From Terriglobales bacterium (GTDB taxonomy: Bacteria; Acidobacteriota; Terriglobia; Terriglobales; Acidobacteriaceae): 25,755 nt of DNA. Made by a program: the position numbers and the translations under genes. The stretch lies in contig JBAIYI010000094.1 of NCBI GenBank assembly GCA_037915955.1, positions 1 through 25,755 on the forward strand, read 5' to 3'. Shown one piece after another: positions 2,719 through 9,919 of the stretch (position 1 is the first letter of the stretch; each line of letters opens with the position of its first letter). The notes beneath the pieces were generated by a model. The model searched no databases. It was not told where the DNA came from and saw nothing but the letters and a program-made list of their open reading frames with translations.

Positions 2719-4089
2719 GTGGCAGAAACTCGCGTGATGAATCGAAACTTCATGTTCCTGTGGCAGGGCCAGATCGTCAGCCAGGTGGGAACGCAGCTCT
2801 TTCAGGTGATCGTCATCCTATCCCTTAAGCAAGCCACGCAGTCGGCGACTTTGGTTGGGCTGTTCATGATGGCCGCAACTGTGCCCGCTCTCTTGCTGGG
2901 CCCGCTGGGCGGCGCCGTGGTGGACCGCTACTCACGCAAGTCAGTCCTGGTGACGGGAGATTTGATCCGCGGGGTGGCGCTCACGGGTTTGGCTGCGGCT
3001 CTCTGGCTCGGCTCGCACTCGCTGACAATCGTGGTTGGATCGCTGTTCGTTTATTCGCTGCTTGAAGGCAGCGTTGGCGCGGTGTGGCAGCCGGCGAGTA
3101 TTTCCGTTGTGCCTGATCTGGTGCCGAAAGAAGGTGTGGGAACGGCGAACTCTTTCATCCAAGGTTCCTTTCAACTCTGTACGGTGCTGGGGCAGGTGAT
3201 CGCCGGAATACTGTTTCGCCTGGTGGGTGCGCCGCTGCTGATGCTGGTGGATGCTGCGACCTACTTCTATGCCGCTGTGAGCGATGCCTTCATTCGCATC
3301 CCCGCGGCCACAGCGAAAGCTTCAGACGAGACTCCGAAGGCAAAGAGTTTTAAAGCGGAGATCGTGGAAGGCCTGCGGCACATCCACACCCGTCCGGGGA
3401 TGCGGATGCTCTTCTACACCATGGCGTTCTTCCAGCTTGTCATGGTGCCAATGCTCATCCTCTTTCCCTTTTATGTAGAGGACTTTCTGCGAGCCGGGCC
3501 ACAGTGGTACGGCTTCCTGCTGGCAGCATCCGGGTTGGGAACCTTCGTTGGATACGGACTGGGAGGCGCACTCAAGCTGTCGCCGCGCAACTCCAGCAGC
3601 GTAACAGTATCCGTAATGGTTCTCATGTCGTTGTGCCTGACTGCACTGGCTTTTGCCAAAGGACCATGGATTGCCCTGGTGCTGATCGCAGCCGTTGGAG
3701 CCATGGACGGATTCATCGTTCTCAAGTTGTTGACAACTCTTCAACTAGCAACGCCTACGGAAATGCGTGGCCGCGTATTCGGACTGCTCATGACGATCAC
3801 TCGAGGACTTACTCCTGTCGCCATGGGGCTCACGGGAGTGATCGCTGACATGATGCATCGCAACATTCCGCTGATCTATGGCGTTTGCGGCGCGGTAGCC
3901 ACGCTGCTGGCGAGCAATGTGGCCGTCCGCGGTGAATGCCGAGCGTTTCTGGCGGGCGAAGACGCCACCGACCATGGCTCCGCTCCCACTCCGATTCAAA
4001 GCAAAGCTCCGGCTATGCTGGAAGCCCCAGACGCCGCTATGAACGCGCCTCTTCTCTGCCAGTTTGATTCCCTGCAGGAGATCAAATGA
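2719..4089 (+). CDS. MFS transporter, DHA3/macrolide-efflux-like, 456 aa
   Basis: About 12 hydrophobic segments; N-terminal NFMFLWQGQIVSQVG; motif A-like GGAVVDRYSRKSVLVTGDLIRG; AAGGAG RBS 8 nt before the GTG; stop overlaps the NRPS start (ATGA). Confidence 0.92.
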   Translation: MAETRVMNRNFMFLWQGQIVSQVGTQLFQVIVILSLKQATQSATLVGLFMMAATVPALLLGPLGGAVVDRYSRKSVLVTGDLIRGVALTGLAAALWLGSHSLTIVVGSLFVYSLLEGSVGAVWQPASISVVPDLVPKEGVGTANSFIQGSFQLCTVLGQVIAGILFRLVGAPLLMLVDAATYFYAAVSDAFIRIPAATAKASDETPKAKSFKAEIVEGLRHIHTRPGMRMLFYTMAFFQLVMVPMLILFPFYVEDFLRAGPQWYGFLLAASGLGTFVGYGLGGALKLSPRNSSSVTVSVMVLMSLCLTALAFAKGPWIALVLIAAVGAMDGFIVLKLLTTLQLATPTEMRGRVFGLLMTITRGLTPVAMGLTGVIADMMHRNIPLIYGVCGAVATLLASNVAVRGECRAFLAGEDATDHGSAPTPIQSKAPAMLEAPDAAMNAPLLCQFDSLQEIK

Positions 4090-7000
4090 GCTCGTCAGCG
4101 CAACACCAGCCGGAGCCGGTACCATCTGGCGAACCCGGCACTCGAGAGCTTTACCCGCTCTCCATGAACCAGCGTGACATGTGGTTCCAAAGCCAGATTC
4201 ATTCTGAAGAAGGGCTCAACAATGTCTGTGTCCAGGTCACGATGGACGGCAAGCTGGATGTGGAGTGCTTCCGTGGTGCATGGCAGGCGGTGGTCAACCG
4301 TCACAGTGCCTTGCGCACTGTGTTCATCGAACGTGATGGGGTGCCCTACCAGAAAGTCCTGCCGGAGGCAGAAGTATATTTCTCCATCGTAGATCTTTCG
4401 GCCGAGGCTCCCGACGAACAGGCAAAGAGCTTGAAGGAGCTGGAACATCAATTTGCCGCGAAGGGGTTTGACTTTGAACGTGGACCGCTATTTCGTTTTT
4501 GCCTGGCGAGGATAGCTGACCAACAGCACGTTTTTCTGTTTACCTTCAGTCACCTGATCATCGACGGCATCTACATGTCGGAAATCTTCGATCAGGTAAG
4601 CGCGTCCTATGAGTCCCTTGCACACGGCAACGATGGGAAGCTGACATGGCTGGATTTGCAATATCCCGAATTTGCCGCAAGACAAATCGAGCGCCTTGAA
4701 AACGGTCTACTGGCGGAGCACGAAAAGTATTGGCACGAACAGCTCCATGCCGCGCTGCCCGCGATGGAACTTCCGACTGATCGCGCGTCACGCAAGACCA
4801 CGAGTTTTGAACTGGGTGTCCTTGATGTGGACGTTCCGGAGTCAGTTTTTGCAAAGCTGAAAAGTTTCCGGAAGCGCTACCGCACAACCGTATTTCGCAC
4901 TGTTCTCGCGGCGTTTGAAGTCCTGCTCCAGCAACTGACGGGAGAAAATGACCTGCTCCTCGGCGTTCCTTTCACAACGCTGCCTAAACATGCGCCGGAA
5001 CTGCTGGGCTTCTTCGGCCACATGGTGCCGGTGCGGGCAAGCCTGGACGGCGCGACGCGATTTACCGATTTGTTGTCGGAAGTGAACCGGCAAATGAACA
5101 ATGCGCAGGAACACCTTGAGTATCCATTGTTTGAAGCTGTGCGTGGGCTCAGGATTATTCGCGATCCTCACCGTCCGCTCTTTCCCGTGGTGATCTCCCA
5201 GGTGCGCGCGCTGGAGAGCACGATGGACGGCGTGCGCCTCAATATGGTGTCAAGGTTCGTGCAGGGCGGTGTTTACCATCTGTGGCTCACGGTACGCGAG
5301 CTGAAGGATGGCCTCTCACTCGGTTTCTATTACAACCGGCAGCTTCTTGAAGGCAGGCCTCTGCAGCTGATTGTCGATTGCATGCAGCAGATGCTTGCCC
5401 GTGTCGTGGAGAATCCGGATGCACCGCTCAGCCTGCTCGAAGTAGTGTCGGCTGCCGAGCGCGAGAGAGTACTCCGTTTCGGTAATGGCGGCCCAGCGCA
5501 GGAGAGCGGTCTCTGGCTTGAACAGATGTTGGCGAAACACGCATCGCAGCAGCCGACGGCAATTGCGGCGTCGGATGGTAACGGCGCAGTTACTTACCGG
5601 GAGCTCAATGAGCGAGCCAACCGGCTGGCGAATTGGCTCATAGCGGGTGGAACGCGCAAGGGCGATCGAATCGGCATCATGGGGCAACGCAGTGTGGGGA
5701 TGCTCACGACCATCCTTGCAGTCCTTAAGGCTGGAGCCGCTTATGTGCCTCTCGATCCCAAGGATCCGCCGGAGCGGATTCTCGGGATGATTAAAGATGC
5801 CGGCTTGAAATGGCTCTCAGTGGATGGAGCGTTAGCAGAGTTGGGATCTCGCCTGGCCTGCACCGCCGGATGCAAGACGTTGAGTTGGAATGACGTCTCG
5901 GCGGCCGGCGTCAATAGCCCCGGGGACTGGAAAGACTCACCGTCCGTTGAACCCTCGGACGTCGACTACAGCGGACGCGATTTAGCCTACATCTTCTATA
6001 CGTCGGGTTCCACCGGTGTACCGAAAGGTGCGATGGTGGAGCGGGCCGGCATGCAAAATCACCTGCTCTCCAAGCTGTATGTGCTGCAGATGAACCCGGC
6101 AGACGTGGTGGTACAGAATGCTTCGCATTGCTTTGACATCTCTGTCTGGCAGTTCCTTGCGCCGTTGATGGCCGGCGGCCGCGTGGTGATTTATGACAAC
6201 GAGTTGGTCCTGAATCCACCAGCGTTGTTGCAAAGGGTAGCAGGCGATGGCGTCACCATTTTCGAAACAGTGCCAAGTTATCTAGAGCTCCTGATGGGAC
6301 TGGAAGGAGTGGAATCGCTGGCTGGATTGCGCTATCTGGTCTCAACGGCCGAGAGTTTGTCTGTCTCCCTGACTGACCGCTGGCTGCGGCGCTTCCCTCA
6401 TGTGCCCCTGGTCAATGCATGGGGTCCTACGGAATGCTCTGACGATGTGACACACGAAATCCTGCAGCCCGGCACAGAAGCTCTGGAAAGAGTTGGCATC
6501 GGCAAACCGATACGAGGTTCGAGAGTTTACGTTCTGGACCGCGAGCTGCGACTGCTTCCCGTAGGTTGCGTGGGTGAGATCGCCATTGGCGGCATTTGTG
6601 TTGGTCGCGGCTACATTGGTGATCCGGCAAAGACCGCGAAGACTTTCATCCCAGATCCATTTGGCCACGCACCAGGCGCTCGGCTTTATCTCACGGGAGA
6701 CATCGGGCGCTGGCGATGGGACGGCTCATTGGAATTTCTGGGCCGGCGTGATGGGCAGGTGAAGATAAGGGGCCGGCGAATCGAAATTGCCGAGATCGAA
6801 GGCGTACTTGGGGCGCATCCTTGCGTTGCTCAAGCAGCGGCCACGGTCCACGGCGGGCGGCTGGTCGCATATTGGGTGGGAAGCGACAAGGTTGAGAGCA
6901 GGGAACTCCGTAAGTTCATTGCTCATCGACTGCCGGAACACATGGTTCCTGAAGCGCTGATGAAACTGGAGAAGCTGCCACTTACCAGGACGGGCAAAGT

Positions 7001-9299
7001 AGATCGCCGGGCGTTGCCCGCACCTGACTGGAGCGAGAGTGCACGAGAATACCTGCCACCGCGCACGGAGGCCGAACAGAATATTGCTGCGATATGGCAG
7101 GAAGTGCTCGGCGTGAAAAGAATCGGGATCCACGACAACTTCTTTGAGATTGGTGGCCACTCACTGAACGCGACTCGTATCATCCTTGGCCTTCAATCGC
7201 GGTTTGGCCATGCAGTTTCGATTCGTACACTGTTCCTCAACCCTACCATTGCGGAGCTGGCATCCGCCTTGGGTGCGAGTAAAGTTGCTGTCGCCGAAAA
7301 GATACCGCTAGCTCCGGATAAAGATTGTTATTCGCTCGCACCGGCCCAGCAACCGATGTGGCTGGCATTTAATGACATTCTGCAGAGCGAATCGCCGGGC
7401 TGGGGGTTCCCGCAGATCATCCGTATTGAGGGCTCCGTTTCCCCGGACGCCCTGGCTGCCGCGCTCTCCCGTCTGGTTGAGCGGCATGACGCTTTGCGGA
7501 TCACGTTCCTTGAGCGCGACGGCGAGCCGCGGCAGCAGTTACATTCAAAGGTAGAGACCACACTACCTTTTCACGATTTTTCAGCTTTGGGCGAGCACGC
7601 CCGTGAAGAGGCCCTGCGGCGCCTGCTTGCTGATCAGCTTTCCGCGCCGCTCACGAATCGGCCACCCATGATACGGCTGCAGTTGGTGCGGCTGGCCGCC
7701 GATCTTCACTATGGGGTGATGCAGTTGCCGCACATAATTTCAGACGTGTGGACTGAACAGATTCTGGTCGAAGACCTTGCCGAGTTTTATAGCGCGATGA
7801 ACACCGGCCGATCCTCTCAGTTGCCAGAGCTACCAGCACGCTTTGTGGATTACGCGGAATGGCACACCACTCGGCTGAACTCGCAAGAGCTGATGGCGCA
7901 GAGAAATTACTGGCTTGAGCTGTTCCGCAATGCTCCCCAGCCTCTGAAACTGCAAGCGATTGGAGACAAAAACGTACGCGGAGCAGACAAGGGGGAGGCT
8001 GTTTCTCTGTCTCTCGCACTTGTCGCGAAATTGAGAGCCTTGGCGAGCGCCAACAACACTACGCTGTACACTTTGCTCCTCAGCTCCCTGCAGACGCTGC
8101 TGGCCCGGCTTACCGGGCTCACCGATGTGGTGGTTGGAACCGCGGTGAGTGGGCGCACGCATCCTGATCTGGAACGAATGGCCGGCTTCTTCATGAACCC
8201 GCTCGCTATGCGATCTGACCTGTCCGGCAATCCGAAGTTCAGCTCACTCCTGGGCCGAGTGCATCAAGGCATGTTGAGCGCGCTGGCAAACCAGGAGTAT
8301 CCCTTCCATCGCTGGCTGGAAGCTTCGCGACGGGAGAAGGGAAGTGCGGACTTCTACCCTCACTCGATTGTCTTACTCGTCGAAGAGCGCCCGCGAGACC
8401 TCTTCTTCGGCGGCGCCAGAGCGTATTTTGACTCCCTGCCCGGCTATAGCTTCGATCTTCGCCGAGTGGCGGGCCCAAACCTGGCCTTGCGCGTGTCAGA
8501 AGGCCGCGAGGGTTGGTGTGCTGAGCTTATTCCAGGAAGCCTGGATGAAGCGCCGCCCCCGGCCGGAATGTTGAGCTGGTGGTGCAGCCTGCTCCAGGAG
8601 ATCGTGGACGATCCTGGCCGTCCCATTGGTGATTACAGCCTGACGAGAAATGAAAGTCGCGATTTGGGTTCATCTCCTGAGTCGCTGGGTTGTGACGACG
8701 CTTTCACACAGTTGGCATTGAAGCTCCAGCGTTCTTCCGCAGGAACGGTTTTTGGACTCCTGACAGACGGTTCTGTGATTGAAAAGCAACCAGATCCGCT
8801 GGACCGGTTGCGAGCCCTGAGAGGCTTGCTCTCTTCCGGTCCTATCAAGGGAATTGCGGCAGATGCTGAGTTGTTGCTGGAGGCCGCGCAAAGAGAAGTA
8901 CTCACTCGTGATGTACTGCCTCAGCTGGAACGGGTGCTTGTACCCGCATCAACCCAGATTGATATTGCCCCGATTCGGCAAGCGCTGGGTATACGGGTGA
9001 GCGCGTTACTGGAACTGGATAATGTTTCTCACGCGGCGCTTTGGATAGACGATTTCGAACCGGGCAGCCCGCTGGTTGGCCGCAGTGCTGGCCCAGAGTT
9101 GGTGGTGATGGACGATTGGGGCAGCGAAACTCCTGCCGGCATCCCAGGCAGACTGTGCAGCAAGGACAAGCCATACGATGCTCCCGTAGCGCTGGGATGG
9201 AGCGCCAGGAGGCGCATGGACGGGATTCTTGAAGTCGAATCACGCCGGTTTGACACGGTTGAGTTAGACGCGGACGAACTGCAGGAACTGCTGCGGTGA
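4086..9299 (+). CDS. Non-ribosomal peptide synthetase, C-A-T-C plus degenerate C-terminal A-like remnant, no TE, 1737 aa
   Basis: C1 core SHLIIDG. A-domain motifs TYRELNERANRLA, LKAGAAYVPLD, YTSGSTGVPKG, FDISVWQ, NAWGPTE, YLTGDIG, GRRDGQVKIRGRRIE, LPEHMVP and TGKVDR. T-domain DNFFEIGGHSL. C2 core PHIISDV with GRTHPDLERMAGFFMN. No GxSxG TE motif after the T domain. Confidence 0.95.
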   Translation: MSSSAQHQPEPVPSGEPGTRELYPLSMNQRDMWFQSQIHSEEGLNNVCVQVTMDGKLDVECFRGAWQAVVNRHSALRTVFIERDGVPYQKVLPEAEVYFSIVDLSAEAPDEQAKSLKELEHQFAAKGFDFERGPLFRFCLARIADQQHVFLFTFSHLIIDGIYMSEIFDQVSASYESLAHGNDGKLTWLDLQYPEFAARQIERLENGLLAEHEKYWHEQLHAALPAMELPTDRASRKTTSFELGVLDVDVPESVFAKLKSFRKRYRTTVFRTVLAAFEVLLQQLTGENDLLLGVPFTTLPKHAPELLGFFGHMVPVRASLDGATRFTDLLSEVNRQMNNAQEHLEYPLFEAVRGLRIIRDPHRPLFPVVISQVRALESTMDGVRLNMVSRFVQGGVYHLWLTVRELKDGLSLGFYYNRQLLEGRPLQLIVDCMQQMLARVVENPDAPLSLLEVVSAAERERVLRFGNGGPAQESGLWLEQMLAKHASQQPTAIAASDGNGAVTYRELNERANRLANWLIAGGTRKGDRIGIMGQRSVGMLTTILAVLKAGAAYVPLDPKDPPERILGMIKDAGLKWLSVDGALAELGSRLACTAGCKTLSWNDVSAAGVNSPGDWKDSPSVEPSDVDYSGRDLAYIFYTSGSTGVPKGAMVERAGMQNHLLSKLYVLQMNPADVVVQNASHCFDISVWQFLAPLMAGGRVVIYDNELVLNPPALLQRVAGDGVTIFETVPSYLELLMGLEGVESLAGLRYLVSTAESLSVSLTDRWLRRFPHVPLVNAWGPTECSDDVTHEILQPGTEALERVGIGKPIRGSRVYVLDRELRLLPVGCVGEIAIGGICVGRGYIGDPAKTAKTFIPDPFGHAPGARLYLTGDIGRWRWDGSLEFLGRRDGQVKIRGRRIEIAEIEGVLGAHPCVAQAAATVHGGRLVAYWVGSDKVESRELRKFIAHRLPEHMVPEALMKLEKLPLTRTGKVDRRALPAPDWSESAREYLPPRTEAEQNIAAIWQEVLGVKRIGIHDNFFEIGGHSLNATRIILGLQSRFGHAVSIRTLFLNPTIAELASALGASKVAVAEKIPLAPDKDCYSLAPAQQPMWLAFNDILQSESPGWGFPQIIRIEGSVSPDALAAALSRLVERHDALRITFLERDGEPRQQLHSKVETTLPFHDFSALGEHAREEALRRLLADQLSAPLTNRPPMIRLQLVRLAADLHYGVMQLPHIISDVWTEQILVEDLAEFYSAMNTGRSSQLPELPARFVDYAEWHTTRLNSQELMAQRNYWLELFRNAPQPLKLQAIGDKNVRGADKGEAVSLSLALVAKLRALASANNTTLYTLLLSSLQTLLARLTGLTDVVVGTAVSGRTHPDLERMAGFFMNPLAMRSDLSGNPKFSSLLGRVHQGMLSALANQEYPFHRWLEASRREKGSADFYPHSIVLLVEERPRDLFFGGARAYFDSLPGYSFDLRRVAGPNLALRVSEGREGWCAELIPGSLDEAPPPAGMLSWWCSLLQEIVDDPGRPIGDYSLTRNESRDLGSSPESLGCDDAFTQLALKLQRSSAGTVFGLLTDGSVIEKQPDPLDRLRALRGLLSSGPIKGIAADAELLLEAAQREVLTRDVLPQLERVLVPASTQIDIAPIRQALGIRVSALLELDNVSHAALWIDDFEPGSPLVGRSAGPELVVMDDWGSETPAGIPGRLCSKDKPYDAPVALGWSARRRMDGILEVESRRFDTVELDADELQELLR

Positions 9300-9340
9300 T
9301 CAGCTTGCCGATACGGTTTCTTGTGGATCGGAGGACGAAA

Positions 9341-9919
9341 ATGCCGGGCGAAATCTCGAAACTACATTCACGACACTTGCGGCGCGCATGGAAGGAAGTG
9401 CAATCGGCCATCGCAGGAATGACTCCCGAGCAAATGACGTGGGCGCCGGAAGGGAAGTGGTCAGCTGCGAATTTGCTTGAGCATCTCTCGCTGGGCTTCC
9501 TCATTACCGTGAAGGCCTCCGGCGTGGTCCTGCGCCAGGAGAGCCCGGGGCTTCCTGAGGCCACGCGGAGCCAGCATTGGTGGACATTTCGGGTCATCAC
9601 GCTCGGGTACCTTCCCATGCGCGTAAAAGCACCCAGAATGGTTTGCCCAAGAGGACAGAGTCCGGAAGAAGCACTTACGGCGCTCATGGAGAACCTGGTG
9701 GAAATGGACCATCGTCTGCAGAAGTGTCACGAAAAATTTGGGACGAAGGTCGGCCTGCTGGCTCATCCGTATCTTGGGCCATTGACGGTAAATCAGTGGA
9801 GGAAGTTTCAGCTTTTTCACGTGCGCCGTCATATGAAGCAGATCTGGCAGCTGAGAAAGCAGATGGCGAGGGCGTCCACGGACGAAGCGGCTTCCCCGGT
9901 GCGGTCATCAGCAGCTTGA
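9341..9919 (+). CDS. DinB/DUF1569-superfamily protein (putative metal-dependent four-helix bundle), about 192 aa
   Basis: WSAANLLEHL and HPYLGPLTVNQWRKFQLFHVRRHMKQI match the DinB His pattern. GGAGG RBS precedes ATG 9341, so this start is preferred over the ORF-track start 9296. Confidence 0.8.
   Translation: MPGEISKLHSRHLRRAWKEVQSAIAGMTPEQMTWAPEGKWSAANLLEHLSLGFLITVKASGVVLRQESPGLPEATRSQHWWTFRVITLGYLPMRVKAPRMVCPRGQSPEEALTALMENLVEMDHRLQKCHEKFGTKVGLLAHPYLGPLTVNQWRKFQLFHVRRHMKQIWQLRKQMARASTDEAASPVRSSAA

Follow-up and report, generated by a model that had tools for sequence, protein, structure and literature searches.

How does a nonribosomal peptide synthetase (NRPS) pass on its product when the protein stops in what looks like the ruin of an adenylation (A) domain? 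This question is raised by a 1737-aa NRPS encoded in a 25,755-nucleotide stretch of DNA from a Terriglobales bacterium (assembly GCA_037915955.1, contig JBAIYI010000094.1), the whole of which we call the window. The window is an entire contig, labeled C4 here, of a metagenome-assembled genome (MAG) that consists of 918 contigs and is 75% complete. A preliminary description of this single stretch had held that the protein ends in its second condensation (C) domain, C2, plus a decayed A-like remnant instead of a thioesterase (TE), and that C2 releases the product by joining the unit bound to the carrier (T) domain to a free amine. Our analysis upholds the remnant and points elsewhere for the release. 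Judged from the sequences, the last ~210 aa are the remains of a second module (A-T-E, with E an epimerization domain). The reading we prefer, at a probability of about one half, is that the dead A domain serves as a scaffold and a terminal docking helix hands over to a partner protein, the 1737-aa NRPS being a subunit that acts early or midway in a multi-protein NRPS line and not a terminating one.

The gene and its domains are the following (dA, pseudo-adenylation domain; Asub, C-terminal A subdomain; ORF, open reading frame; AF2, AlphaFold2; COM, communication-mediating):

4086..9299, + strand: NRPS gene, C1-A-T-C2-dA-terminal helix (ORF list, translation, Pfam)
4146..5468, + strand: C1, aa 21-461, His motif SHLIIDG (Pfam)
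5532..6998, + strand: intact A domain with P-loop and Asub, aa 483-971 (PF00501 8e-79, PF13193, TIGR01733 9.6e-118)
7083..7271, + strand: T (peptidyl carrier protein, PCP) domain, aa 1000-1062 (Pfam)
7323..8660, + strand: C2, aa 1080-1525 (PF00668 5.4e-70; PDB phmmer)
7728..7748, + strand: C2 active-site motif PHIISDV, aa 1215-1221 (alignment of 7 orthologs)
8667..9245, + strand: dA, aa 1528-1720 (hhalign, AF2, Foldseek, VIA, conservation)
9249..9296, + strand: terminal motif FDTVELDADELQELLR, aa 1722-1737 (homolog alignment, AF2, COM-register comparison)

The tail behind the second condensation domain

The tail, ~210 aa long (residues 1528-1737), gives little away by itself. Pfam and NCBIfam contained no match for it even at an E value of 10, the PF00501 model was not passed, and a phmmer search of the PDB with the tail alone returned no sequence match. 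When the tail was compared by BLASTP with the protein's own A domain, the aligned pieces were non-significant, though colinear with motifs A6 and A7/A8. As far as sequence can tell, motif traces read from a single tail are not above chance, and homologs are needed to show an origin from an A domain.

A profile of 11 tails was compared by hhalign with a profile of 90 diverse A domains. The comparison gave a probability of 97.6% (E 4.1e-12) in local and of 98.7% (E 3.8e-15) in global mode, with tail positions 20-213 lying colinearly on A columns 200-428; earlier small alignments had given 86% (E 4.7e-6). The match persisted at 97.3% without the terminal helix, and the second half of the tail alone reached 96.6% on A columns 271-405. 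Controls stayed low throughout (0.2% with a C-domain profile, at most 0.5% in five column shuffles and 0.2% with the reversed profile). In the profile alignment, the two segments in which A-domain motifs had initially been read fall exactly on A6 and A7/A8. A remnant of the C or E type was also considered as the identity of the tail and was ruled out (hhalign 0.2%).

Structure prediction and a Foldseek search of the C terminus, which the preliminary description had proposed as a check, gave the same picture. An AF2 model based on a two-sequence alignment was unusable (predicted local distance difference test, pLDDT, 39.6), and the model derived from the 11-sequence alignment was used instead (pLDDT 82.8, predicted template modeling score 0.74). 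In it, model residues 9-194 fold into a compact alpha/beta domain, 195-200 form a linker of low confidence and 202-209 a terminal helix. The top Foldseek matches were all A-domain or ANL enzymes, namely CahJ, teicoplanin A1, DltA and EntE, with an E value of 1.6e-8 (~1e-8) and a query-normalized TM-score (TMq) of 0.44-0.48. VIA-align yielded Z scores of up to 10.7 and an rmsd of 5.1 over 179 residues, and placed the tail on residues ~180-400 of enzymes of ~500 aa, for example on 213-427 of TycA. The tail is the second half of an A core, carrying motifs A4-A8.

Motifs A1-A3, which include the P-loop (TSGSTGxPKG) and occupy the first ~200 aa of the A core, are missing, and the alignment starts after A3. 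The whole of Asub with A9 and the A10 lysine is missing too, and the protein ends ~16 aa past the A8 position; the profile alignment thereby confirms the reported absence of the P-loop and of the catalytic-Lys subdomain. Within the retained part the A5 threonine and the A7 aspartate have been replaced (GPTE is aligned to xxLD and TGD to xWx), and the A6-A7 loop of the stub is shortened. By these alignments every nucleotide-binding motif is gone and the adenylation domain is predicted to be dead. What has been lost is ~200 aa at the N-terminal side together with Asub, which is truncation and not scattered decay. The A-like remnant first proposed is thus retained in substance, with its extent corrected from ~270 to ~210 aa and its decay to a truncation at the N-terminal side. 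It is still translated, as had been claimed, the single forward ORF 4086-9299 being open and free of stops and frameshifts in the ORF list and its translation. A scaffold role for the dead A domain also appears reasonable, given that the stub is conserved among homologs and folded in the AF2 model.

C2 itself extends to ~aa 1525, and its residues 8-450 are covered by the phmmer matches in the PDB. It is a complete, ordinary elongation-type domain whose closest solved relatives are Txo2, Txo1, TycC6 and PvdL. In its active-site motif, PHIxxD[VEG], 7/7 orthologs share the catalytic His and the Asp and have Pro in place of the first His, while the Gly position, noted earlier as changed to Val, varies between V, E and G. 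The second His and the Asp of HHxxxDG are present, which at the level of sequence is consistent with catalytic competence, and both residues have remained unchanged over ~40-60% sequence divergence. Neither Pfam nor NCBIfam detected a T domain in cis after C2 and the stub.

Relatives, constraint and the terminal helix

A word-indexed homolog search with the tail found one relative, P0005. An exhaustive search of 1.84 billion representative proteins with a hidden Markov model (HMM) gave nine matches, comprising seven genuine relatives, the protein itself and P0014. A genome scan with the C-terminal 130 aa as query, the full tail alignment having no sufficiently conserved stretch, added three loci, in a Candidatus Angelobacter, a Terriglobia MAG and an Acidobacteriaceae MAG. 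The tail family is rare and, besides the 1737-aa NRPS, comprises 11 proteins, that is the seven relatives, P0005 and the three genome loci. An organism is named in the records of three relatives, in each case one of the Acidobacteriota. P0014, a phage tail fibre, was discarded as a spurious match.

The closest relative, P0005, is 75% identical overall and 66% identical in the tail. The 11 tails align nearly without insertions or deletions, and tail length is kept. The same terminal motif stands at the protein end, in 10 homologs as FxT.EL.A[DE]E..E/A.L and in P0013 as a variant that follows a dead E domain. Comparison of five orthologs with the 1737-aa NRPS gave identities of ~70% for C1, ~69% for A, ~75% for T and 54-61% for C2. 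In the tail the identity was 16-28% over the first 82 aa, 38-41% over the next 111 aa and 65-76% over the last 17 aa.

Nonsynonymous divergence (dN) follows the same gradient. In the closest pair of DNA sequences (L009 and L010) it amounted to 0.123 in C1, 0.123 in A, 0.066 in T and 0.150 in C2, the last being similar to C1, and to 0.741, 0.282 and 0.107 in the first part of the tail, its second part and its last 17 aa, respectively. The N-terminal 80 aa of the stub hence diverge ~6x faster than the catalytic domains. The reading frame is open and the length retained in all lineages. These patterns indicate that the tail is not drifting freely; its N-terminal third appears relaxed, its second half moderately constrained and its terminal helix constrained like a catalytic domain. 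Retention of the remnant in homologs, on which the preliminary description had made its proposal depend, is therefore seen in 11 relatives, with a constraint that is uneven along the tail.

The last 16 aa, FDTVELDADELQELLR, form an acidic amphipathic helix behind the low-confidence linker in the AF2 model. The register of this helix matches that of TPSDFxxxxLxQxxLDxL, the COM-donor motif with which E domains end. In 43/43 TP[SA]DF E-to-C junctions of the retrieved NRPSs, two of these junctions being protein C termini, positions F+5, F+10 and F+13 are hydrophobic, and the same is true of FDTVELDADELQEL. In the 1737-aa NRPS, F1722 is followed by L at +5, +10 and +13; the TPSD part is not conserved and reads RRFD. 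The helix follows the A stub in this protein, an unusual place for a COM-type helix, and a dead E domain in P0013.

P0013 (2185 aa) has the order C-A-T-C-dA-T-E, with the same A stub after C-A-T-C and with T and E both dead. Its T domain reads GGSV where PvdL has GGDS, and the HH of its E domain has become SA. A phmmer search of the PDB matched this segment to T-E didomains such as those in PvdL, TycA and GrsA. Its C terminus reads ARFDTVELNPDELEKLIT. The gene that follows (P0015) overlaps the P0013 stop, is translationally coupled to it and begins with a C domain. A dead E domain, the terminal motif and a next gene starting with C place the P0013 end in the context of a COM donor. The simplest derivation suggested by the sequences is that the tail family arose from a P0013-like state when the dead T-E body was deleted, an event that would have joined LEIxxR of the stub to RFDTxEL. 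This suggests that a COM-type helix may work away from an E domain.

A probable thioesterase-bearing partner and the fate of the chain

The remnant had been described as standing in place of a TE because only one contig had been looked at. In the syntenic clusters of relatives the TE resides on another NRPS of 2442-2458 aa (hereafter the 2450-aa NRPS), which ends in T-TE and is encoded ~9-15 kb upstream on the same contig. On the 47.8-kb contig of P0005, the 2442-aa T-TE NRPS lies ~9 kb upstream of P0005; genes for a lyase, a GHMP kinase, a ketosynthase (KS), a PALP enzyme, an aldolase and a major facilitator superfamily (MFS) protein lie between the two, and DinB and ADOP genes follow P0005. 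Other contigs have the same gene order together with stand-alone C proteins and MbtH, and some also encode a CmlA-like hydroxylase and an X-A-T protein. In genome G001, the stand-alone C protein, the 2458-aa NRPS and the ortholog of the 1737-aa NRPS are all encoded on one 529-kb contig; the cluster of G001 spans ~324-350 kb of its contig C4. In the source genome of the window, other pieces of the cluster are found on contigs C94 and C769, the latter with an ortholog of the 2442-aa NRPS (75% identity) and, at its very start, the end of a stand-alone C gene.

Contig C94 carries (L002:1454-5461) a CmlA-like di-iron beta-hydroxylase gene followed by one that encodes an A-domain protein, extended at its N terminus by ~260 aa without a Pfam match. 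In a relative, a stand-alone C gene and MbtH flank this pair.

The first module of the 2450-aa NRPS (L001:263-2557 on contig C769 of the source genome; P0016-P0023) consists of a His-less C domain, an A stub of ~110 aa and an intact T domain (GGHS or GGQS). In this C domain the catalytic second His is replaced by Pro or Ala (H[AP]xxxD) in 9/9 orthologs. The stub covers A6-A8 only, except that P0022 has a longer one with an A5-like piece, and the sequences thus point to a graded erosion of A domains in the partner family. Two tandem C domains without a T domain between them follow, and then A-T-TE. The tandem domains (P0016 aa ~630-1560; also P0017, P0018 and P0020) have an LCL-like HHILSD motif and then a C1-type SHLILD motif, and no COM-like motif was found between them. 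Judging from this domain order, one of the two must act non-canonically.

C1 of the 1737-aa NRPS groups in a 'C1-type' clade with the stand-alone C proteins of the cluster and the third C domain of the 2450-aa NRPS. It carries a conserved arginine-rich lead-in (xLERRxxRE[LY][FY]PLS), common to the stand-alone C proteins, and matches PDB entry 8z0q ('Special condensation domain in NRPS') at E 7e-42.

The end of the 1737-aa NRPS (an active C, no T) and the start of the 2450-aa NRPS (a dead C, a T) are complementary. In the reading we prefer, the dead A stub would have been retained to support or space C2 structurally and to act as a stalk presenting the docking helix, and the helix would recruit the next subunit. 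C2 would then condense the unit on the first T domain (T1) with an aminoacyl group whose carrier domain is provided in trans. For this carrier, the strongest candidate is the first module of the 2450-aa NRPS with its His-less C, smaller A stub and intact T, the mirror image of the end studied here. Its T domain would be loaded by another A domain, by analogy with the fungal synthetase SidD, and the product would be released at the TE of the partner. The TE-bearing partner and the COM-register helix both point to such a partner, and the free-amine release proposed for C2 is not supported. Acceptance of the chain by a downstream partner in the conventional way had been named as an outcome that would speak against that release; a hand-over to a partner is indicated here, although not a conventional one.

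A predicted complex of the tail with the His-less C domain scored an ipSAE of 0.39 (runs 0.34-0.40), against 0.00 for the best of three controls; this counts as weak support, the mark being reached by 58/80 solved complexes and 2/110 mismatches, and passing scores of no more than 0.60 coming from just 7 of these 80 solved complexes and from both passing mismatches. At least 81% of the contacts were common to the runs, and the pLDDT of the partner was at least 81.

Several observations weigh against this reading. The weak complex score may reflect remembered solved C-A didomains, and the arginine-rich lead-in of C1-type domains suits the acidic helix better than does the uncharged N terminus of the His-less C domain. 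In the sole homolog whose acceptor is adjacent (P0013, with P0015), the domain paired with the helix is of the C1 type and not a His-less C. COM donors have been described only at E/C junctions (PMC12402864, PMC9113145), whereas the helix here sits on an A stub, and no COM match emerged when the PDB was searched by phmmer with the P0013 end. In the source genome the cluster is spread over three contigs, its linkage resting on the relatives, and a frameshift, one TGA and one TAG (L001 ~2555-2650, ~3466) interrupt the second C domain of the partner NRPS. That domain is intact in relatives, and the break is either an assembly error of the MAG or real decay. Finally, synonymous divergence (dS) is saturated in all DNA pairs (proportion of synonymous differences, pS, 0.63-0.8), which makes the dN/dS ratios (omega) rough. 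Since the only known adjacent acceptor, P0015, is of the C1 type and C1-type domains carry the arginine-rich lead-in, the stand-alone C1-type C protein encoded next to the 2450-aa NRPS is a serious alternative docking target.

The proposal of the preliminary description, a StaS/VibH-like release, would keep release on the 1737-aa NRPS itself. Here C2 and the dead A stub would condense the (acyl-)aminoacyl unit on T1 with a soluble amine or amino acid, so that the subunit makes its own small product, the amine stemming from the neighboring PALP, ATP-grasp, aldolase, lyase and kinase genes. The model is StaS, the stripteamide synthase of Xenorhabdus, whose C domain couples acyl thioesters with free phenylethylamine and depends for this on the truncated A-like region to which it is fused (bioRxiv 10.64898/2026.06.15.732422). 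StaS resembles the present end in combining a C domain with a dead A fragment and shows that such stubs can be functional scaffolds. The strongly constrained catalytic His and Asp of C2, the lack of a T domain in cis after it, and the amino-acid-tailoring genes and MFS exporter directly upstream in the same operon would all suit this mechanism. StaS, however, is a stand-alone, starter-type C domain that uses free amines and retains an N-terminal piece of A by the C-A linker, whereas the C domain here lies inside a C-A-T-C protein, is nearest to ordinary elongation domains and is followed by an A4-A8 stub, the C-terminal half of the core, with a conserved docking helix after it. The most constrained element of the tail would be superfluous for a free-amine mechanism, and the A-less T domain with a His-less C and the partner TE in the cluster fit elongation in trans. 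We regard this route as unlikely.

It is similarly doubtful that the second module is a fossil to be skipped, with C2-dA conserved for structural reasons as a spacer without catalysis, the helix as the only part that matters, and T1 handing its cargo straight to a C domain on the next subunit. The decay of A, T and E after C2 in P0013, where the helix and the following C-starting gene persist nonetheless, indicates at least a partial bypass; the tandem C pair of the 2450-aa NRPS and the fast evolution of the first 80 aa of the stub are also in line with it. An active-site motif would hardly be expected to survive in a pure spacer, yet the His and Asp of C2 are invariant at a dN like that of C1, and the stub has kept its length and has a confidently predicted fold. 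An artefact or recent pseudogene, by which a misassembly, frameshift or fresh deletion hides a protein that really runs on into T-TE, is extremely improbable. The fragmented, incomplete source MAG and the frameshifts in another of its NRPS genes could have suggested it, but the same stop after the same motif recurs in the 11 other proteins of the tail family from separate metagenomes and MAGs. Moreover, the next gene is DinB or the ADOP permease in 5/5 relatives whose downstream DNA or gene calls were examined, and no NRPS homology follows the 1737-aa NRPS in any frame of the window.

The hand-over to a partner can tentatively be extended to a complementary degeneration, in which the COM-type helix unites two half-dead modules into one elongation module and a distant A domain loads the carrier. 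On this view the 1737-aa NRPS would have kept an active C2 while losing the function of the following A domain and all of T and E, and the 2450-aa NRPS would have kept its T while losing most of an A domain and the catalytic His of its C. P0013 and P0022 would then represent earlier stages of decay.

Known systems, significance and neighboring genes

The closest parallel to the truncation is found in the fungal siderophore NRPSs SidD and Nps6 (A-T-C-dA-T-C), whose dA lacks ~290 N-terminal aa and whose A1 loads both T domains (PMC10192304). In both cases an inactive dA is retained after a C domain and the N-terminal ~200-290 aa with the P-loop are lost, the present stub starting at A column ~200. 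In contrast to the fungal enzymes, the present protein is bacterial (Acidobacteriota), has also lost Asub and ends in a docking-type helix without a T domain in cis. The carrier would here have to come from another protein. P0013 has a decayed T domain after the stub. The known COM donors TycA, GrsA, SrfA-A/B and BacB share the C-terminal acidic amphipathic helix with hydrophobic F+5, F+10 and F+13; in the 1737-aa NRPS, however, the E domain is gone, the helix sits on an A stub with RRFD in place of TPSD, and docking is a prediction. A-less NRPS modules that are loaded in trans include SyrE module 9 with SyrB1 and yersiniabactin HMWP1. Like these, the partner's first module needs an A domain from elsewhere; unlike them, it seems to be one of two half-dead modules on two proteins that make good each other's losses, the one having an active C but no T and the other a T but a dead C.

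Neither truncated A domains nor COM helices are new in themselves, but a bacterial subunit that ends in C-dA-helix without a carrier, together with a decay series and a complementary half-module in a partner, was not described in the literature searched. Dead A stubs have been reported for siderophore synthetases of fungi, with StaS as a very recent addition, and their role and evolution in bacterial assembly lines have barely been described. The proteins compared here offer a natural series of module decay, from the intact module through a dead A-T-E and an A stub fused to a docking helix to a stub of ~110 aa. If the split module is real, it would give NRPS engineers a natural example to follow in choosing the sites at which modules are cut and re-joined and the part of the A core that has to stay by the C domain. 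The case also exposes an annotation trap, as an NRPS that ends in C and lacks a TE in a fragmented MAG is not necessarily a terminating enzyme.

The genes next to the NRPS in the window are as follows:

277-1542, + strand: ATP-grasp ligase, upstream operon (Pfam/NCBIfam; syntenic in all relatives)
1546-2658, + strand: GntG-type pyridoxal phosphate (PLP) aldolase, upstream operon (Pfam/NCBIfam; syntenic in all relatives)
2719-4089, + strand: MFS exporter, upstream operon (Pfam/NCBIfam; syntenic in all relatives)
9341..9919, + strand: DinB_2/DUF1569 gene (Pfam; GGAGGA ribosome-binding site)

The start of the NRPS gene overlaps the stop of the MFS gene, and the GGHS serine motif of its T domain is present in all orthologs. 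The NRPS stop codon (TGA, 9297-9299) is followed after 41 nt by the start of the DinB_2/DUF1569 gene. A DinB gene adjoins the NRPS 3' end in the window and in 4/5 of the relatives' loci examined, being absent in L005. Further downstream lie genes for an ADOP permease, a sigma-54 two-component system and a class III lanthipeptide synthetase. An antisense ORF of 261 aa (8902-9687, - strand), which covers part of the tail and the start of the DinB gene, is most likely a by-product of the high G+C content.

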